NCBI RefSeq assembly: GCF_054482525.1
Contig: NZ_CM137006.1
Length of the DNA: 64,000 nt
Reading direction: 5' to 3' (one strand)
The stretch's first letter is position 1. Every line of letters starts with the position of its first letter. The notes below the pieces were generated by a model. It made no database searches and had not been told where the DNA came from. It worked only from the letters and a program-made list of their open reading frames with translations. Of the stretch, positions 12,799 through 61,261 are shown one piece after another. Position numbers and translations under genes: made by a program.

Positions 12799-12858
12799 TT
12801 GAACGAGCCGGATGAGCAGTTTTCATCCGGCAATAATTCACAAGTACACGAGATGGTA

Positions 12859-13389
12859 TCAAATAAACCCCTGTTTATTATAAAGTTCTTCAGCGAGAGT
12901 TTCCCCGTGCTCATCGAAAAAAGCATCGGCGATAGTTAAATTTTCTGCCTTAGGATTTGCCGTTATTTTGCTACCATTGGCATCAAATTCGAGCGCGATA
13001 GCGGTCTCCGAACCCCACCAGTAATAATAAATTAGCGCAAAATTATTTTCCCCTGGCGTAATAAACTTCTCGATTCTCCGCACACAGGCCATGAGTGGCA
13101 TGAAGATTTCATAGCTCTCTGAGAGAAATATGTGATCCATCGTGACTATCTGTGTTTCTTTATTAAAGTTGATATGTTCGGCATAAATATTCTTTTCACT
13201 TTCACCAGAATTACAAGCTGCAAGATTGTTAAGCATTTTTGCAGGATCGCCGTACAACCGCTGCTTCTCGATAAACCATGGTAACCAGTCGTCATAGTCT
13301 TTGATATTTGTTGCTGGTGAATGGAAAAACTTCTCGAGGTTACTCTCGGTAATATGTGCATGAAGAAAAAAGGAAGCCGGTTCACTCAT
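12859..13389 (-). CDS. Hypothetical protein, 176 aa, no recognisable motif (orphan ORF in AT-rich islet)
   Basis: Clean ATG-start ORF with plausible RBS; AT-rich codon usage unlike flanking genes; no signal peptide; not part of the K-12 gene order as I know it. Confidence 0.6.
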   Translation of the reverse strand: MSEPASFFLHAHITESNLEKFFHSPATNIKDYDDWLPWFIEKQRLYGDPAKMLNNLAACNSGESEKNIYAEHINFNKETQIVTMDHIFLSESYEIFMPLMACVRRIEKFITPGENNFALIYYYWWGSETAIALEFDANGSKITANPKAENLTIADAFFDEHGETLAEELYNKQGFI

Positions 13390-13547
13390 GATGATTTTCT
13401 CTGGTAATAAGTCGATTTGTTCATTTCTCTGTTTGGTGATGATAAAACGATGACTATTTTATAAAAGTACAGAACTGGACCTTTCATCTATTTCATATCA
13501 TAAGAAAATATATACAAGAACTGGCTCAGAATAAGCGGAATACGAAA

Positions 13548-14267
13548 ATGGGGCGTAAAGGACTACTTGCTATTGTATTGTTGAGCCTGTTTATCGCCAT
13601 GATTTTTCAATTTTTCTGGCCTGCCCCACACGATGAGCACGTTTTCCTGCTGGTTGAAAAACCTGTCGTACCGTCTTTAAAAATCATTCACGCCGGCGAC
13701 CAGTTATTTATCCGCATTCTGAAAGCGGAAGATAAGCTGGAACTGTGGGCAAGCACCAACAACAAGCCTTACGAACTCTATAAAACCTGGACTATATGCG
13801 CGTGGTCTGGTGGCTTAGGGCCAAAGCACAAACAGGGGGATGGTAAAAGCCCGGAAGGTTTTTATGCCACCAACAAAGGGTTACTTAACCCAAACAGTCG
13901 CTATCATCTGGCATTTAATATTGGTTACCCGAATGCTTACGATCGGGCAAACGGCTACACCGGTGATTTCATTATGGTTCACGGAAACTGCCTTTCGGCG
14001 GGCTGCTATGCCATGACCGATGCTGGTATTGAAGAGATTTATCAACTGGTGGCGCAGGCGCTGAATAGCGGGCAGAAGAGCGTGCCGGTGCATATCTTCC
14101 CGTTTGCGATGAACGAAGAAAATATGCGCCAGGCGCAGGTATGGCCGGAATATAATTTCTGGCGTATGTTGAAGCCCGGCTATGATTACTTTGAAAAAAA
14201 TCGCCGATTGCCAACCATCACCATTGAAAACCGGCGTTATAAAATCAGCCCAACAACTCATCCTTAG
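13548..14267 (+). CDS. YafK/DpaA-like L,D-transpeptidase-fold protein (YkuD domain) with N-terminal signal/anchor
   Basis: 239 aa; hydrophobic N-terminus; YkuD catalytic motif HGNCLSAGC; long-range similarity to E. coli YafK (…SGGLGPK…[10 protein letters not shown]…[11 protein letters not shown]…GCYAM…PGYDYFE…). Confidence 0.75.
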
Positions 14268-15252
14268 CATCCATCGCCAGTTCAAACGAATGCAGGCGCG
14301 CCTGGTGATCGAAAATCTGCCCGTTAACCATAATCTCATCGGCGTCGGTTTCGCGCAGGATCGACTGCAAGCCGTGACGCACTTTCGCTTTATCGCCCAC
14401 CAGCGACATACTCAGCGCCTGCTGCACGCCATACTGCTCGGACGGTGACCAGAACTGATCCATATTTTGAATCGGCGGCGGTAGTTGCCCGGTTTCGCCA
14501 CGGCGTAGTTTCACAAAGGCTTGCTGCATTGAGGTAAAGAGAAATTCAGCGTCGCGGTTGCTGTCGGCGGCGATAATATTGATGCACACCATCGCATACG
14601 GTTTTTCCAGCCGAGCCGACGGTTTGAAGTTACTGCGATAAAGATGCAGCGCCTGGAACAACATATCCGGCGCGAAGTGTGAGGCAAACGCAAACGGCAG
14701 ACCAAGCTGCGCCGCCAGTTGCGCACTGTAAAGGCTGGAGCCTAACAACCATACGGGGATTTTTTCGCCATAGCCTGGTACCGGGCGCACATGTGGATTG
14801 GGATCGCGGGCGTCAAACCAGTCCACCAGCTCCGCGACATCGCGGGGGAAATTATCAATATCGCCGCTCATATGACGACGTAGAGCCATCATGGTTCGCT
14901 GGTCACTACCCGGAGCACGACCCAGCCCCAAATCGATTCGCCCCGGATAGAGCGTATTAAGCGTGCCGAACTGTTCGGCGATCACCAATGGTGAGTGATT
15001 AGGCAACATCACGCCGCCAGACCCCAGATGCAGCGTAGTGGTATTCGCCGCCAGATAGCCAATCAAAACTGATGTTGCAGCACTGGCAATGCCAGTCATA
15101 TTGTGGTGTTCTGCCAGCCAGTAGCGATGATAGCCGCGCTTTTCAGCCAGACGGGCGAGATCGAGAGAGTGGGAGAATGCTTCTCGCGCTGAAGAACCTT
15201 CGGGAATGGGGGCCAGATCGAGTAGCGAAAACGGAATGGTTTTATCAGTCAT
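14245..15252 (-). CDS. yhbW: Luciferase-like monooxygenase YhbW
   Basis: 335-aa [22 protein letters not shown]...; bacterial luciferase-like family. Confidence 0.93.
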
Positions 15253-15332
15253 AACAGCTCACTTTGTTACCGATTAATCTTTAATACTGCATTAAAGAGT
15301 AGTTAAAGTTGTTAACAAAGTGAGCTATATAC

Positions 15333-16211
15333 TTACGCTTGCAGCTCCAGCCCGGCCAGCCGCCGCCAGTAGCCGTTACAATCGCTGTTTGCCGTCAACG
15401 GCAGTGGTGCAGCGCCATTTTCATTGGCGCGGAAGGCGTCGAGCATTGCGAAAGTGTCAGTACCCTGCGGTGACAGGCGGACCACATCGACCAGCCCCTG
15501 CATGGATGTCAGCTCGTTACCGAGGTTGTAAACGTAGCCGCTCATGGTCTGAATGCCATTGAGTACAAACACTTGTTGGTTTTCCTGCGATAGCACGTTG
15601 CGCCCGTTCGGATACTTAATGCAGCAGGTTTCACACTCATCTTTCGGGCGGTCTTCCGAACGCGCGGTAAAGCAGCGGGCGGAGTAGGCCAGCGGCAGAT
15701 GACCGTAGCTCAGGACTTCCACTTCAAACTGGTTGCGAATGCCCAGCTCATCGCACTGATTAAGCAGATTCACCAGCCAGTCGCGGGATAGCTCCACCGG
15801 CATACACCAGCGCATCATGCCCTGTTTAAGCAATATTTTCAGCGTCACCGCGTTGTAGCAGTTCAGCGCATGTCCGGCGACGAACGGCAGTTTGCGTTCA
15901 GCGCACATATTCACCACGCCGAGATCGCTGGCTTCAATCAGAAACTCACCGTTCTCAACATAGCGTTTCAGTTCGCCCAGTTCAGAGGATGCCTGCACCA
16001 GCGCCAGCGTGGAGAGCACAATCTGCTTACCACTTCCGGCGAGTGATTTTGCCATCTCCAGCCAGTCGCCAACTTTGGTTGCCCGGCGCTTGCTGCATAC
16101 CGCTTCACCAAGATAAATCACGTCGGCGCTGCTGGCGGCGGCCTGCTGATAAAATTCTTCCAGCGTCTCTTTTGGCCAGTACCACAGCACTGGCCCTAAG
16201 GAATATTTCAT
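15333..16211 (-). CDS. ubiV: U32-family protein UbiV (O2-independent ubiquinone biosynthesis)
   Basis: MKYSLGPVLWYWPKETLEEFYQQ...; 292 aa from internal ATG of track ORF. Confidence 0.9.
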   Translation of the reverse strand: MKYSLGPVLWYWPKETLEEFYQQAAASSADVIYLGEAVCSKRRATKVGDWLEMAKSLAGSGKQIVLSTLALVQASSELGELKRYVENGEFLIEASDLGVVNMCAERKLPFVAGHALNCYNAVTLKILLKQGMMRWCMPVELSRDWLVNLLNQCDELGIRNQFEVEVLSYGHLPLAYSARCFTARSEDRPKDECETCCIKYPNGRNVLSQENQQVFVLNGIQTMSGYVYNLGNELTSMQGLVDVVRLSPQGTDTFAMLDAFRANENGAAPLPLTANSDCNGYWRRLAGLELQA

Positions 16212-16219
16212 TGCTTTTC

Positions 16220-17215
16220 TCACTGCCATTTACGGTGATACGCGCCAAGGGTGGTCTGCGTGCCTTCGGACATCGACCCGAGCGTCTCCATCCACGCGCT
16301 TTGCGGTACGAAGTTTTGCGGATCGGCCTTACAACGGTCGATAGCCTGACGCCAGACTTTCGCCACCTGGCTGACATACGCCGGGCTACGCTGGCGGCCT
16401 TCAATTTTCACCGAAGCAATATTCGCTGCCATTAACTCCGGCAGCAGTTCCAGGGTATTGAGACTGGTGGGTTCTTCCAGCGCGTGATAGCGCTCGCCGT
16501 CCACCAGATAACGCCCTTTACACAGCGTCGGATAACCTGCGTTTTCGCCGTCCTGATAACGGTCGATCAGCACTTCGTTCAGGCGGGATTCCAGCCCCTG
16601 CGGCGTTTGCTGCCAGCGCACGAAGCGAGCCGGAGAACATGCACCGACGGTGTTGGGCGATTCACCCGTCAGATATGACGACAGATAGCAACGGCCTTCC
16701 GACATAATGCACAGGCTGCCGAAAGCAAAGACTTCCAGTGGTACAGGCGTGACCCGCGCCAGTTGTTTCACCTGATGAATCGACAACACGCGCGGCAGCA
16801 CCACGCGGGCAACGTCAAAATGGCGATGATAAAAGTTAATCGCCTCTTCATTGGTCGCCGAAGCCTGCACTGACACATGACGCTCAATATGCGGGTAACG
16901 CTCGGCGGCGTACTCCAGCATGGCGAGGTCGGCGAGGATCAGCGCGTCGGCACCCAGCTGCGCCGCCATATCCACGGCGCGCTGCCAGCGGGCGTAACCG
17001 TCCGGGTGCGCAAAAGTGTTAATCGCGATGTGAAGTTTGCGGCGATGTTGATGGACAAAACTCACCGCTTCCTGCAATTTTTTCTCGGTAAAGTTAAGGC
17101 CGGCGAAGTGACGGGCATTGGTATCATCTTTTAGCCCGATATAAACAGCATCTGCGCCGTTTTCGATGGCCGCCTTAAGCGCCGGGAGATTTCCGGCAGG
17201 GCAGAGCAGCTCCAT
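16220..17215 (-). CDS. ubiU: U32-family protein UbiU
   Basis: MELLCPAGNLPALKAAIENGADAVYIG...; 331 aa; 8-bp spacing to ubiV. Confidence 0.9.
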   Translation of the reverse strand: MELLCPAGNLPALKAAIENGADAVYIGLKDDTNARHFAGLNFTEKKLQEAVSFVHQHRRKLHIAINTFAHPDGYARWQRAVDMAAQLGADALILADLAMLEYAAERYPHIERHVSVQASATNEEAINFYHRHFDVARVVLPRVLSIHQVKQLARVTPVPLEVFAFGSLCIMSEGRCYLSSYLTGESPNTVGACSPARFVRWQQTPQGLESRLNEVLIDRYQDGENAGYPTLCKGRYLVDGERYHALEEPTSLNTLELLPELMAANIASVKIEGRQRSPAYVSQVAKVWRQAIDRCKADPQNFVPQSAWMETLGSMSEGTQTTLGAYHRKWQ

Positions 17216-17423
17216 AATTTTTCCTGAAGGTTGCGCTATCAAAGCGCAAAAATGTTAACGAACTGGGATTTTAGTTAACCTTGCTGCGACAATTTTTGAT
17301 TTAAGGCAGTTAAAGTTGTATTGGTGGTAGCAGCAATTTCATATGGAATTGTTGATTTATACCGCTATGTTATTTTTCTGATATGGCAAAATAGGATGAT
17401 TGTTGAAACAGGGAGTAAAACTC

Positions 17424-17948
17424 GTGTTGGATAAACTGCGTTCCCGTATTGTGCATTTGGGGCCATCTCTGTTGAGTGTACCGGTAAAACTGACGCCATT
17501 TGCGCTAAAACGCCAGGTTCTTGAGCAGGTCTTAAGCTGGCAATTCCGTCAGGCGCTGGATGATGGCGAGCTGGAGTTTCTTGAAGGCCGCTGGTTAAGT
17601 ATTCATGTGCGTGATATTGACCTGCAATGGTTTACCTCGGTGGTGAATGGCAAACTGGTCGTTAGCCAGAACGCGCAAGCTGATGTGAGTTTTAGTGCCG
17701 ACGCCAGCGATCTGCTGATGATTGCGGCGCGTAAACAAGATCCGGATACGCTCTTCTTCCAGCGTCGGCTGGCGATTGAAGGCGATACGGAGCTGGGGCT
17801 GTATGTGAAAAACCTGATGGACGCCATTGAACTGGAGCAAATGCCGAAAGCCTTACGCATGATGCTGCTGCAACTGGCGGATTTTGTTGAGGCGGGAATG
17901 AAAACCGCGCCTGAAACCAAACAGACATCGGTAGGTGAACCATGCTAA
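17424..17948 (+). CDS. ubiT: SCP2-domain protein UbiT (YhbT)
   Basis: …LDKLRSRIVHLGPSLLSVPVKLTPFALKR…; likely GTG start at 17424 (track ORF begins 17400); divergent from ubiU. Confidence 0.8.
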   Translation: MLDKLRSRIVHLGPSLLSVPVKLTPFALKRQVLEQVLSWQFRQALDDGELEFLEGRWLSIHVRDIDLQWFTSVVNGKLVVSQNAQADVSFSADASDLLMIAARKQDPDTLFFQRRLAIEGDTELGLYVKNLMDAIELEQMPKALRMMLLQLADFVEAGMKTAPETKQTSVGEPC

Positions 17949-18445
17949 TTCGAGTAGAAATTCCCATTGATGCGCCGGGTATTGATGCCCTGCTGCGTCG
18001 TTCATTCGAAAGTGATGCGGAAGCGAAGCTGGTTCACGATCTGCGTGAAGATGGCTTTCTGACGTTGGGGCTGGTGGCGACAGATGACGAAGGTCAGGTC
18101 ATTGGCTATGTGGCATTTAGTCCGGTTGATGTGCAGGGCGAAGACCTGCAATGGGTCGGCATGGCACCGTTGGCGGTTGATGAAAAATACCGTGGACAGG
18201 GGCTGGCACGCCAACTGGTCTATGAAGGACTCGATTCGCTTAATGAGTTCGGCTATGCCGCAGTGGTGACGCTGGGCGATCCGGCGCTGTACAGTCGTTT
18301 CGGCTTTGAGCTGGCGGCGCATCACGATCTGCGTTGTCGCTGGCCGGGCACTGAAAGCGCCTTCCAGGTACATCGTTTAGCGGATGACGCGCTGAACGGC
18401 GTAACCGGTCTGGTTGAGTATCACGAGCACTTCAATCGCTTTTAA
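17942..18445 (+). CDS. yhbS: GNAT-family N-acetyltransferase YhbS
   Basis: 167-aa ORF, acetyl-CoA binding motif region ([10 protein letters not shown]). Confidence 0.9.
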
Positions 18446-18734
18446 TCTTTGGGGTTTGCAGGCTGCTCAACAGTTCTGCAAACCCTGCGCCTTTCGCTAC
18501 CAGACGTTCTTTTTGCCGTTTGGTCAGTTGCTTAACGCGATATTCTGCCCGTAACGCCAGCGAACGATCGCCCACTGGCGCGGAAAACGCCAGCGTTAGT
18601 TCTCCTTTCCCGCGCAGTGCTTTCGCCCCTTTGCCGCTTTGGTGCTCCTTATAGCGGCGTTCGACATCCGTGGTGATCCCGGTATAAAGCTTATTATCGG
18701 CGGTACGGATCAAGTAAAGAAACCAGGGTGTCAT
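18432..18734 (-). CDS. yhbQ: GIY-YIG domain protein YhbQ
   Basis: 100-aa ORF with GIY-YIG-type motif ([15 protein letters not shown]…). Confidence 0.9.
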
Positions 18735-18784
18735 CGTCTGTGTCGCATGTTAAGGTCAGGCCCACAGTATAAAAGAGAACAGTT

Positions 18785-19207
18785 ATGGAAACACTCACCG
18801 CCATCAGCCGTTGGATGGCAAAACAACATGTTGTCACCTGGTGTGTGCAGCAGGAAGGGGAATTGTGGTGCGCCAATGCCTTTTATCTTTTTGATGCGCA
18901 GAAAGTTGCCTTCTACATTTTGACGGAAGAAAAAACGCGCCACGCGCAGATGAGTGGGCCGCAGGCGGTAGTTGCCGGAACGGTAAACGGTCAGCCGAAA
19001 ACGGTAGCGTTAATTCGCGGCGTGCAATTTAAAGGCGAGATCCGCAGACTGGAAGGTGAGGAAAGCGACCTCGCACGCCAGGCGTACAATCGACGCTTTC
19101 CGGTTGCCAGAATGCTGTCGGCCCCGGTGTGGGAAATCCGGCTCGATGAAATCAAATTCACCGACAACACGCTGGGCTTTGGTAAAAAAATGATCTGGCT
19201 ACGTAAC

Positions 19208-19228
<21 letters not shown>
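18785..19228 (+). CDS. yhbP: UPF0306 protein YhbP
   Basis: 147-aa [22 protein letters not shown]... Confidence 0.88.
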
Positions 19229-20489
<1,261 letters not shown>

Positions 20490-59880: not shown

Positions 59881-60635
<755 letters not shown>

Positions 60636-60739
60636 ATCAGCATACTTGTCCTTAGCCTTCTGCAGTGACAGCTGGTAGTACAGCGTGCTTCTGGCCAGCC
60701 CTGCAGCCTTTAACAGGTCAGACTGGCAGTGTCCGCACC

Positions 60740-61261
60740 TCAGGCTCCGGATGACTTTCGTTTTTTCTCCAGCTCCTGGCGCTTTTTTTCCAGGAGATGC
60801 TCCTGCATGGCTTTCAGATATGCATTTTCTGCGCGAAGATAACGCAGCTCATTCTTCATCTCTTCCGGCGTCATGTTTGCCTCGTTTTCATGGGTATCAT
60901 CAGAACGGGTCATGCTTTTCTCCTTCCTGCGCCTGATAAAGGCCTCATTACCAGATTTGCGGTAGCCTTTTATCCAGTTTTTAACCGTGTTGTGGCTGGG
61001 AATGTTAAACCGGGCAGCTACCCGGGGTAGAGACTCAGAATGCCCGAGAGCATAAAGAACCACGCAAAGTTTATCTTCAGGAGAATAGCTACGCTTGTGT
61101 CTGCAATCCAGTGCCCGAGGACCGTGAAGAAGAAAAAGATTAATCCAGTGTGAGAGGCTGGTGTGAGAAAGTTGAAAGAGTTTTGCCGTAGAAATGATGC
61201 CTGCATGACCAGCCAGGTAGTGATTTACAGCGGCAAGTTTTACTTCAAATGAATGTTTCAT
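60740..61261 (-). CDS. insJ: IS3-family transposase OrfA (HTH), IS150 InsJ-like
   Basis: MKHSFEVKLAAVNHYLAGHAGIISTAKLFQLSHTSLSHWINLF… 173 aa. Confidence 0.88.
   Translation of the reverse strand: MKHSFEVKLAAVNHYLAGHAGIISTAKLFQLSHTSLSHWINLFLLHGPRALDCRHKRSYSPEDKLCVVLYALGHSESLPRVAARFNIPSHNTVKNWIKGYRKSGNEAFIRRRKEKSMTRSDDTHENEANMTPEEMKNELRYLRAENAYLKAMQEHLLEKKRQELEKKRKSSGA

Follow-up and report, generated by a model that had tools for sequence, protein, structure and literature searches.

Genes and features of the locus

The stretch of DNA analysed here (the window, 64 kb in full) is E. coli chromosome and differs at 5 positions from strain PCN033. It carries ubiT on one strand and, divergently oriented on the other, ubiU and ubiV (Table 1). 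The three genes are full length with no internal stops, as a preliminary description of this DNA had it, and their coordinates agree with the RefSeq annotation of the identical PCN033 stretch.

Table 1. Genes and sequence elements of the ubiT / ubiU-ubiV locus, in positions of the window.
Feature	Coordinates	Strand	Description
ubiV (yhbV) CDS	15333..16211	-	292 aa, ATG start; U32-family [4Fe-4S] protein, UbiU partner; ORF and translation
ubiU-ubiV intercistronic gap	16212..16219	-	8 nt, GAAAAGCA; identical in K-12
ubiU (yhbU) CDS	16220..17215	-	331 aa, ATG start; U32-family [4Fe-4S] protein
Short hairpin UUGCGC-N7-GCGCAA	17231..17249	-	ubiUV 5' leader, directly upstream of the ribosome-binding site
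-10 hexamer TAAAAT	17268..17273	-	Fnr-dependent ubiUV promoter; transcription start ~17259-17261
Fnr site F1	17296..17309	.	TTGATTTAAGGCAG; in ubiU direction CTGCCTTAAATCAA; activates ubiUV, centred ~-41.5; identical in sequence to the site that was published and mutated
Fnr site F2	17352..17365	.	TTGATTTATACCGC; activator site of ubiTp2, the proximal ubiT promoter; identical in sequence to the published one
Candidate extended -10 element	17384-17392		TGGCAAAAT; read from sequence, ubiTp2 side
ubiT (yhbT) CDS	17424..17948	+	174 aa, GTG start; SCP2 lipid-binding accessory factor
hqbA (yhbS)	17942..18445	+	GNAT acetyltransferase with Pfam GNAT domains, Hfq-binding protein; second gene of the ubiT operon

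The spacing of 8 bp previously given for ubiU and ubiV is exact, and such a gap is consistent with a single ubiUV transcript. In orthologous loci the two genes lie adjacent on one strand wherever both are present, and of the 108 loci measured, 9 have a gap outside the range of 8-35 nt (both among the matches listed). In 99.6% of genomes, under 500 bp separates ubiU from ubiV (PMC11707229).

On the other side of the locus, ubiT and hqbA overlap by 7 nt. Their co-transcription was demonstrated by RT-PCR (PMC10470549) and the ubiT-hqbA operon is also stated in PMC10710024; HqbA is dispensable for ubiquinone synthesis. Because ubiT overlaps hqbA and shares its transcript, the functional unit reaches beyond 17948. 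The extent of 15333-17948 proposed earlier is therefore right for ubiV, ubiU and ubiT, and omits hqbA, which belongs to the same transcription unit as ubiT.

Alternative start codons were considered for each gene and rejected. For ubiT, a Shine-Dalgarno sequence (GGGAG) lies 8 nt upstream of the annotated GTG, which is the start in 41 of the 49 orthologues aligned from residue 1 (among the matches listed). The in-frame TTG at 17400, which would give 182 aa, was discarded because ubiTp2 transcription starts at ~17399 and the orthologue alignments begin at the annotated GTG. An ATG at 16229 for ubiV (298 aa, overlapping ubiU) and a TTG at 17242 for ubiU (340 aa) were set aside since the published cysteine numbering fits proteins of 292 and 331 aa, respectively, and the orthologue alignments start at the annotated codons.

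Protein families and iron-sulfur ligands

The gene identities assigned earlier are borne out by the NCBIfam equivalog models and the Pfam domains (U32 and SCP2). UbiU, queried without its initial Met, scores 558.1 bits against NF047963 (cut-off 440) and covers model positions 2-331 of 331. UbiV reaches 363 bits against NF047965 (cut-off 275) and 440.6 against PRK15447 (cut-off 283). UbiT reaches 153.3 bits against NF047962 (cut-off 46.9), and its Pfam SCP2 domain 71 bits. The Pfam Peptidase_U32 domain is found in both UbiU (228.9 bits) and UbiV. A PDB sequence search with UbiU and UbiV returned zero matches, that is, no detectable relative of solved structure.

All eight ligand cysteines are kept: C169, C176, C193 and C232 in UbiU, arranged as CX6CX16CX38C, and C39, C180, C193 and C197 in UbiV, arranged as CXnCX12CX3C. 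The same residues were identified by mutagenesis in K-12 as the ligands of the two [4Fe-4S] clusters (PMC6747719). The conservation of these cysteines, for which the preliminary description had proposed an alignment, holds throughout about 100 orthologues among the matches listed. In UbiU they are invariant in 101 orthologues, where the search pattern itself required C169 and C176, which leaves C193 and C232 as the independent tests; in UbiV they are invariant in 94 orthologues, a set not selected on the UbiV sequence.

The names attached to these proteins suggest a different activity. Pfam places both in Peptidase_U32, RefSeq calls ubiV a "U32 family peptidase" in 10 of the 10 records listed, and the 19KM1776 record names ubiU a "peptidase U32 family protein"; on family and product names, both could be read as peptidases or collagenase-like enzymes. 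Such a reading deserves almost no credence: both proteins exceed the cut-offs of the UbiU and UbiV equivalog models, none of their Fe-S ligand cysteines is missing or varies (among the matches listed), and the 99% identical K-12 proteins bind [4Fe-4S] clusters and are needed for the anaerobic hydroxylation of ubiquinone precursors (PMC6747719, PMC10990095). It is just as improbable that the two genes are paralogues from the TrhP/YegQ (tRNA hydroxylase) or RlhA/YdcP (rRNA hydroxylase) subfamilies. The cysteine motif is common to these families (PMC6747719) and UbiU has a secondary NCBIfam match to TrhP of 164.9 bits, but this lies far under the cut-off of 534, whereas UbiU and UbiV score over their own; moreover, the genes occupy the K-12 ubiUV position and adjoin ubiT.

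The divergent spacer and its Fnr sites

The spacer between the annotated start codons of ubiU and ubiT measures 208 bp (17216-17423) and not 180 bp, as previously described; a value of 184 bp is obtained only if the TTG at 17400 is taken as the ubiT start. An Fnr-site search of the spacer, also suggested previously, is answered by the presence of both published sites, base for base, and both F1 and F2 stand in class II activator geometry. F1 is followed after 22 nt by the -10 hexamer TAAAAT; 67 distinct orthologous promoters (among the matches listed) have a TAnAAT element at the same distance. The published ubiUV transcription start lies 36 nt from F1 (PMC10470549). On the ubiT side, transcription from ubiTp2 starts at ~17399, and that from the constitutive ubiTp1 about 19 nt upstream of F2, at ~17332 (PMC10470549).

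Against the consensus TTGAT-N4-ATCAA, F1 and F2 each match at 7 of 10 positions, and a best match of at least 7 of 10 occurs in ~82% of shuffled 300-nt regions. A consensus scan of the whole window with up to 2 mismatches gave 39 matches, with ~34 expected, and none in the spacer; consequently, a consensus scan cannot find F1 or F2. Since their consensus matches are weak, the assignment of the two sites rests on published mutagenesis and conservation rather than on a consensus score. Fnr dependence and its loss on mutation of the sites were reported for the identical sequences of K-12 (PMC10470549, PMC10710024), and the Fnr sites are conserved Pseudomonadota-wide (PMC11707229).

The short hairpin of the ubiUV leader folds at -12.1 kcal/mol with a z of only -0.8. 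Its pair at 17244 is G-C here and G-U in K-12. By eye, a stem seems to be kept in the Citrobacter leader, with a different loop.

Other candidate elements were discarded. The sole promoter match of a sigma-70 scan overlaps the ubiU start codon and fits no published promoter, and the terminator-like matches in the same scan were at chance level. No known RNA family was found by an Rfam scan of 14200-19300; its two sub-threshold matches, to a miRNA model at the ubiV-yhbW hairpin and, in the spacer, to a CRISPR-repeat model, were rejected as chance.

The asymmetric half of F1

Read in the ubiU direction, F1 has the form CTGCC-N4-ATCAA, and Escherichia, Citrobacter, Edwardsiella and five genera of Vibrionaceae all keep this form upstream of ubiU. 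In the 67 distinct promoters (seven genera, among the matches listed), CTGCC carries about the same information per position as ATCAA, and next to none is found in the spacer and the flanks; most of the sample comes from one family, the Vibrionaceae. Exact CTGCC-N4-ATCAA occurs 69 times in 1.01 Mb, 68 of them upstream of ubiU (among the matches listed), with ~2 expected by chance. What is new here, and the sole such detail, is that in the promoters compared the non-consensus CTGCC half of F1 is, unexpectedly, conserved as strongly as the consensus ATCAA half, which is a modest addition to the published work. Palindrome-only motif searches in print would have missed this conservation.

The asymmetry is oppositely oriented at the two promoters: the consensus half is next to the promoter for ubiU and away from the promoter for ubiT. 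The F2-related site reads TTGAT-N4-GCCGC in Citrobacter and TTGAT-N4-GACGC in Edwardsiella.

Tentatively, and with rather low expectation, F1 may be viewed less as a degenerate Fnr palindrome than as a conserved asymmetric element, CTGCC-TnAn-ATCAA, of which the non-consensus half would be held fixed, in Enterobacterales and Vibrionaceae alike, either by a second factor or by an Fnr-DNA geometry that sets a very low O2 threshold for ubiUV. That the CTGCC half is read by a second DNA-binding factor, cooperating or competing with Fnr at the ubiUV promoter, is itself doubtful. The information content of this half and the near-exclusive position of its exact matches speak for such a factor, for a half-site that is merely weak could drift among non-consensus bases and this one did not. 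However, orthologous sites are known to keep non-consensus bases quite generally, as a matter of affinity tuning. The CTGCC half still holds the T-G core of an Fnr half-site, and the mostly Vibrionaceae sample includes a V. harveyi-clade subset with CTAAC in place of CTGCC. Compared by eye with the consensus motifs of ArcA, NarL, IscR, NsrR, FadR, IHF and sigma-54, the CTGCC half fits none convincingly. UbiV is no longer produced when the TTGAT half alone is mutated, and overexpressed Fnr switches the promoter on (PMC10470549); this, too, tells against a second factor. A conserved asymmetric operator could interest work on how Fnr promoters are tuned to O2 thresholds, as a small refinement and not as a discovery.

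Proposed function and occurrence

The locus is almost certainly the E. coli O2-independent ubiquinone biosynthesis locus ubiT / ubiU-ubiV, and no evidence contradicting this reading was found. In the window, it draws on gene integrity, protein families, ligand cysteines, Fnr-site identity, promoter geometry and conservation; the heterodimer, cluster binding, hydroxylase function, prephenate donor and Fnr dependence come from the K-12 literature.

By analogy with K-12, UbiU and UbiV would pair up as a heterodimer of U32-family proteins, in each of which four cysteines hold one [4Fe-4S] cluster. Heterodimer formation, cluster binding and hydroxylase activity in the absence of O2 were established for K-12 proteins that differ by 1 and 2 residues, respectively, from UbiU and UbiV of the window (PMC6747719). 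The heterodimer would carry out all three hydroxylations of the ring that ubiquinone synthesis requires, with prephenate and not O2 supplying the oxygen, and UbiT, an SCP2 lipid-binding accessory protein, is thought to handle the hydrophobic intermediates instead of UbiJ. At low O2, active Fnr is expected to occupy F1 and F2 in the spacer and, as a class II activator at both, to activate transcription of ubiUV to the left and, from the proximal promoter, of ubiT to the right. The second, constitutive ubiT promoter would provide basal UbiT and HqbA in air. The system explains how facultative anaerobes go on making ubiquinone without O2, by a chemistry that is unusual in taking its oxygen from prephenate.

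The ubiTUV stretch is 100% identical to annotated ubiT, ubiU and ubiV in three E. coli genomes. Among the complete genomes of the species, 5424 of 5426 have the locus; the system is therefore already known, in line with its first labelling as such. It is an ordinary core locus of E. coli, to which the window adds one more allele, and its biology is already published.

Comparison with known systems

The biochemistry and genetics of the K-12 system (b3157-b3159) were described by Pelosi et al. 2019 (PMC6747719), Arias-Cartin et al. 2023 (PMC10470549) and Kazemzadeh Ferizhendi et al. 2024 (PMC10990095). Gene order, orientation, lengths, the 8-nt gap, the length of the spacer, both Fnr sites, all ligand cysteines and the ubiT-hqbA overlap are the same in the window and in K-12. 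The differences within the genes are allelic only (T26A and A235T in UbiV, I190V in UbiU and V117A in UbiT) and affect no ligand cysteine, and the spacer has one SNP, at 17244, outside both Fnr sites. Between yhbW and mtr there is, in the strain of the window, an accessory insert of 1.4 kb that is missing from K-12.

In Vibrionaceae ("architecture 4", PMC11707229), ubiUV is accompanied by a separate ubiT locus. Their UbiU is 70-79% and their UbiV 54-67% identical to the proteins of the window. As in the window, ubiU and ubiV are adjacent, and so are ubiT and hqbA; an asymmetric Fnr-type site, 22 nt and a -10 element lie upstream of ubiU and of ubiT. Unlike in the window, ubiT-hqbA stands ~2.4 kb from ubiUV, and a yhbW neighbour is absent. 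The two loci read, those of Aliivibrio fischeri L089 and Vibrio furnissii L071, hold a PAS-GGDEF-EAL-like gene between ubiUV and ubiT-hqbA. At the ubiT site, Vibrionaceae have AACAG or GGCAT as the second half, where the window has ACCGC.

TrhP/YegQ, which makes ho5U34 in tRNA, and RlhA/YdcP, which makes ho5C2501 in 23S rRNA, have the U32 domain and the four-cysteine motif in common with UbiU and UbiV (PMC6747719), and a prephenate-dependent hydroxylation like that of UbiU and UbiV was proposed for them (PMC10990095). The window proteins stay under the TrhP cut-off (164.9 and 23.8 versus 534). TrhP and RlhA act on RNA and have no SCP2 partner, whereas the substrate of UbiU and UbiV is a prenylated phenol.

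Genes and encoded proteins

The ubiTUV system is an already known, core locus of E. coli. The preliminary description of ubiT, ubiU and ubiV as intact genes of O2-independent ubiquinone biosynthesis is confirmed and its interpretation supported, apart from the length given for the spacer and the end assigned to the operon, which are corrected below. Translation of all three frames gives zero internal stops. The gap between ubiU and ubiV is 8 nt, as previously stated, whereas the divergent spacer between ubiU and ubiT, formerly given as 180 bp, measures 208 bp.

Features of the ubiTUV locus (gene coordinates from the RefSeq annotation of the identical stretch)
Feature	Window position	Strand	Remarks
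yhbW (neighbour)	14245-15252	-	
ubiV	15333-16211	-	own translation 292 aa, ATG start
ubiU	16220-17215	-	own translation 331 aa, ATG start
ubiUV -10 hexamer TAAAAT	17273-17268		exactly 22 nt past F1
F1 (Fnr site)	17296-17309		exact published sequence, single occurrence in window
F2 (Fnr site)	17352-17365		exact published sequence, single occurrence in window
ubiT	17424-17948	+	own translation 174 aa, GTG start
yhbS/hqbA (neighbour)	17942-18445	+	

The Pfam family Peptidase_U32 matches UbiU (228.9 bits) and UbiV (38.2 bits), and the SCP2 domain matches UbiT (71 bits). The NCBIfam equivalog scores are 558.1 bits for UbiU (cut-off 440), 363 for UbiV (275) and 153.3 for UbiT (46.9); the paralogous TrhP model reaches only 164.9 and 23.8 bits with the UbiU/UbiV proteins (cut-off 534). 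A sequence search of a PDB copy detected no relative of UbiU or UbiV with a solved structure.

Cluster-ligand cysteines

Through mutagenesis, metal analysis and complementation, Pelosi et al. 2019 established in K-12 that UbiU C169/C176/C193/C232 (CX6CX16CX38C) bind one [4Fe-4S] cluster and UbiV C39/C180/C193/C197 (CXnCX12CX3C) a second one, inside the UbiU-UbiV heterodimer (PMC6747719). All eight ligands occupy the exact published positions in the window. A degenerate DNA pattern encoding the UbiU peptide FGSLCIMSEGRCY retrieved at least 120 orthologous loci. These are mostly from Vibrionaceae, the rest including Escherichia, Citrobacter, Edwardsiella, Shewanella, Kistimonas, an Oceanospirillales genome, and Colwellia with other Alteromonadales. 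Among the matches listed, the alignment of 101 UbiU and 94 UbiV sequences of full length, a check proposed earlier, reveals no loss of any ligand cysteine; UbiU C169 and C176 are set by the search pattern, which leaves six cysteines as independent tests. Three non-ligand cysteines are also conserved among these matches (UbiV C278 in 94/94, UbiV C196 in 92/94 and UbiU C5 in 99/101); the literature consulted describes no role for them.

Fnr sites in the divergent spacer

In K-12, 36 nt separate F1 (TTGATTTAAGGCAG) from the ubiUV transcription start that follows it. F2 (TTGATTTATACCGC) sits between the two ubiT promoters, 19 nt past the constitutive ubiTp1 and 33 nt ahead of the Fnr-dependent ubiTp2 (PMC10470549). 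With reporter fusions and chromosomal mutations, Arias-Cartin et al. 2023 showed that UbiV production requires F1 and anaerobic UbiT induction requires F2 (PMC10470549). Both published sites, sought following the preliminary suggestion of an FNR site in the spacer, are found unchanged. They would not be detected by consensus score alone, since each fits 7/10 positions of TTGAT-N4-ATCAA, a scan allowing two mismatches recovers neither, and shuffled 300-nt regions reach at least 7/10 about 82% of the time. F1, the 22-nt interval and TAAAAT form a class II arrangement with the site centre near -41.5; such geometry, together with conservation, supports F1 and F2 as probable operators in this strain.

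By eye, the TTGATT of F1 may have a second role as the -35 element of ubiTp1, with a weak candidate -10 (TATTGG, 17319-17324) placed 17 nt away. In the 17316-17332 area, ATTGGTGGTAGCA bears, also by eye, a loose likeness to half a PdhR box.

Asymmetric operators across genera

Across Pseudomonadota, ubiU and ubiT are preceded by conserved Fnr sites, as described with MEME for palindromic 14-mers only (PMC11707229); the supplementary files of that work make no mention of half-sites, palindromes or asymmetry. When the ubiU upstream regions are anchored at the ATCAA half-site, CTGCC-N4-ATCAA followed by 22 nt and TAnAAT is found in 71/104 loci among the matches listed, in Escherichia, Citrobacter, Vibrio, Photobacterium, Aliivibrio, Enterovibrio and Grimontia. 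This count includes rare variants (ATGCC or CTGGC for CTGCC; GTCAA for ATCAA in two loci). In the 1.01 Mb of DNA fetched, where chance would give about 2 copies, the exact motif occurs 69 times, and 68 of these occurrences, including that of Edwardsiella anguillarum, lie upstream of ubiU (among the matches listed). The ubiU sites of Alteromonadales, Shewanella and Kistimonas are more palindromic, and a V. harveyi-clade subset carries CTAAC-TTAG-GTCAA. Upstream of ubiT, one consensus half (TTGAY) is joined to a lineage-specific half: Vibrio and Aliivibrio have AACAG, Photobacterium, Enterovibrio and Grimontia have GGCAT, and Enterobacterales have RMCGC. Relative to the promoter, the consensus half is the distal one at ubiT and the proximal one at ubiU.

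Among the matches listed, each CTGCC position carries close to 2 bits of information, like ATCAA, and the N4 spacer and flanks near zero. This conservation is ordinarily read as selection for Fnr affinity acting on single non-consensus positions. A second factor that reads the CTGCC half of F1 is an improbable alternative. Two caveats apply: the sample of at least 120 loci is dominated by one family, the Vibrionaceae, and the counts come from the matches listed.

Operon extent and ubiT start

The ubiT stop and the hqbA (yhbS) start overlap by 7 nt (17942-17948). By RT-PCR, ubiT and yhbS share one transcript, and ubiquinone synthesis does not require yhbS (PMC10470549). The functional transcription unit therefore reaches 18445, beyond the end at ubiT assigned previously. 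HqbA is an Hfq-binding acetyltransferase that Fnr co-induces with UbiT (PMC10710024), and the ubiT-hqbA pairing also occurs in Edwardsiella and throughout Vibrionaceae in the fetched loci.

Among the matches listed, 49 ubiT orthologues aligned from residue 1 start with GTG (41), TTG (6) or ATG (2), whereas nearly all ubiU, ubiV and hqbA orthologues start with ATG. This near-universal non-ATG start suggests that a translational down-tuning of UbiT is conserved.

Hairpins and neighbouring features

The 80-bp ubiV-yhbW spacer (15253-15332) is almost entirely a nested hairpin (arms 15256-15269 and 15313-15326), with a perfect outer stem of 14 bp and an inner stem of 9 bp. For the minus-strand RNA the folding energy is -28.4 kcal/mol (z -3.95), no U-tract follows, and the probable yhbW ribosome-binding site (GUGAG) is covered by the 3' arm. 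In Citrobacter the outer arms keep an identical 12-bp core, so there is no covariation by which to choose between a stem in the RNA and a palindrome in the DNA. The ubiUV 5' leader (17231-17249) contains a 6-bp stem, UUGCGC-N7-GCGCAA, whose fold is not significant alone (z -0.8); by eye, Citrobacter also has a stem here, with another loop.

A 1.4-kb accessory insert lies between mtr and yhbW (12800-14244), absent from K-12 and present in 183/5426 complete E. coli genomes. One of its ORFs (12859-13389, minus strand) specifies a 176-aa protein without a Pfam match, and another (13548-14267, plus strand) specifies a YkuD-type L,D-transpeptidase and runs 23 nt into yhbW at its 3' end. In Aliivibrio fischeri (L089, 4114-6141) and Vibrio furnissii (L071, 4406-6466), one ORF of about 680 aa on the ubiUV strand occupies most of the approximately 2.4 kb between ubiT-hqbA and ubiUV; from motifs read by eye, its product looks PAS-GGDEF-EAL-like. 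Most other Vibrionaceae loci have a similar gap (2.3-2.6 kb). Between yhaL and cyuA, at about 59913-61261 by the PCN033 annotation, lies an IS1397 transposase (IS3 family) that has a programmed frameshift; it is unrelated to ubiTUV.

Comparison with known systems

How the system works is described in publications on K-12, whose locus is near-identical. There, at low O2, [4Fe-4S]-Fnr activates ubiUV and ubiTp2, and constitutive ubiTp1 keeps UbiT up in air (PMC10470549). UbiU-UbiV perform the O2-independent hydroxylations (PMC6747719), with prephenate as the source of the oxygen atoms (PMC10990095). The SCP2 protein UbiT has been proposed to substitute for the lipid-handling accessory factor UbiJ (PMC6747719).

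Three complete E. coli genomes (PCN033, SCU-102 and 19KM1776) match the 15200-18100 region at 100% identity, and 5424/5426 complete genomes carry it at ≥80% coverage; two genomes lack the locus, and one of 5429 matching places lies on a record labelled plasmid. PCN033 differs from the entire 64-kb window at five positions, including 13983 and 14020 in the transpeptidase ORF, which is open in the window; in PCN033 it has an internal stop and a pseudogene flag. Compared to K-12 MG1655, the proteins differ by T26A and A235T in UbiV, I190V in UbiU and V117A in UbiT, and the divergent spacer by a single base at 17244, where the leader stem has G-C in the window strain and G-U in K-12.
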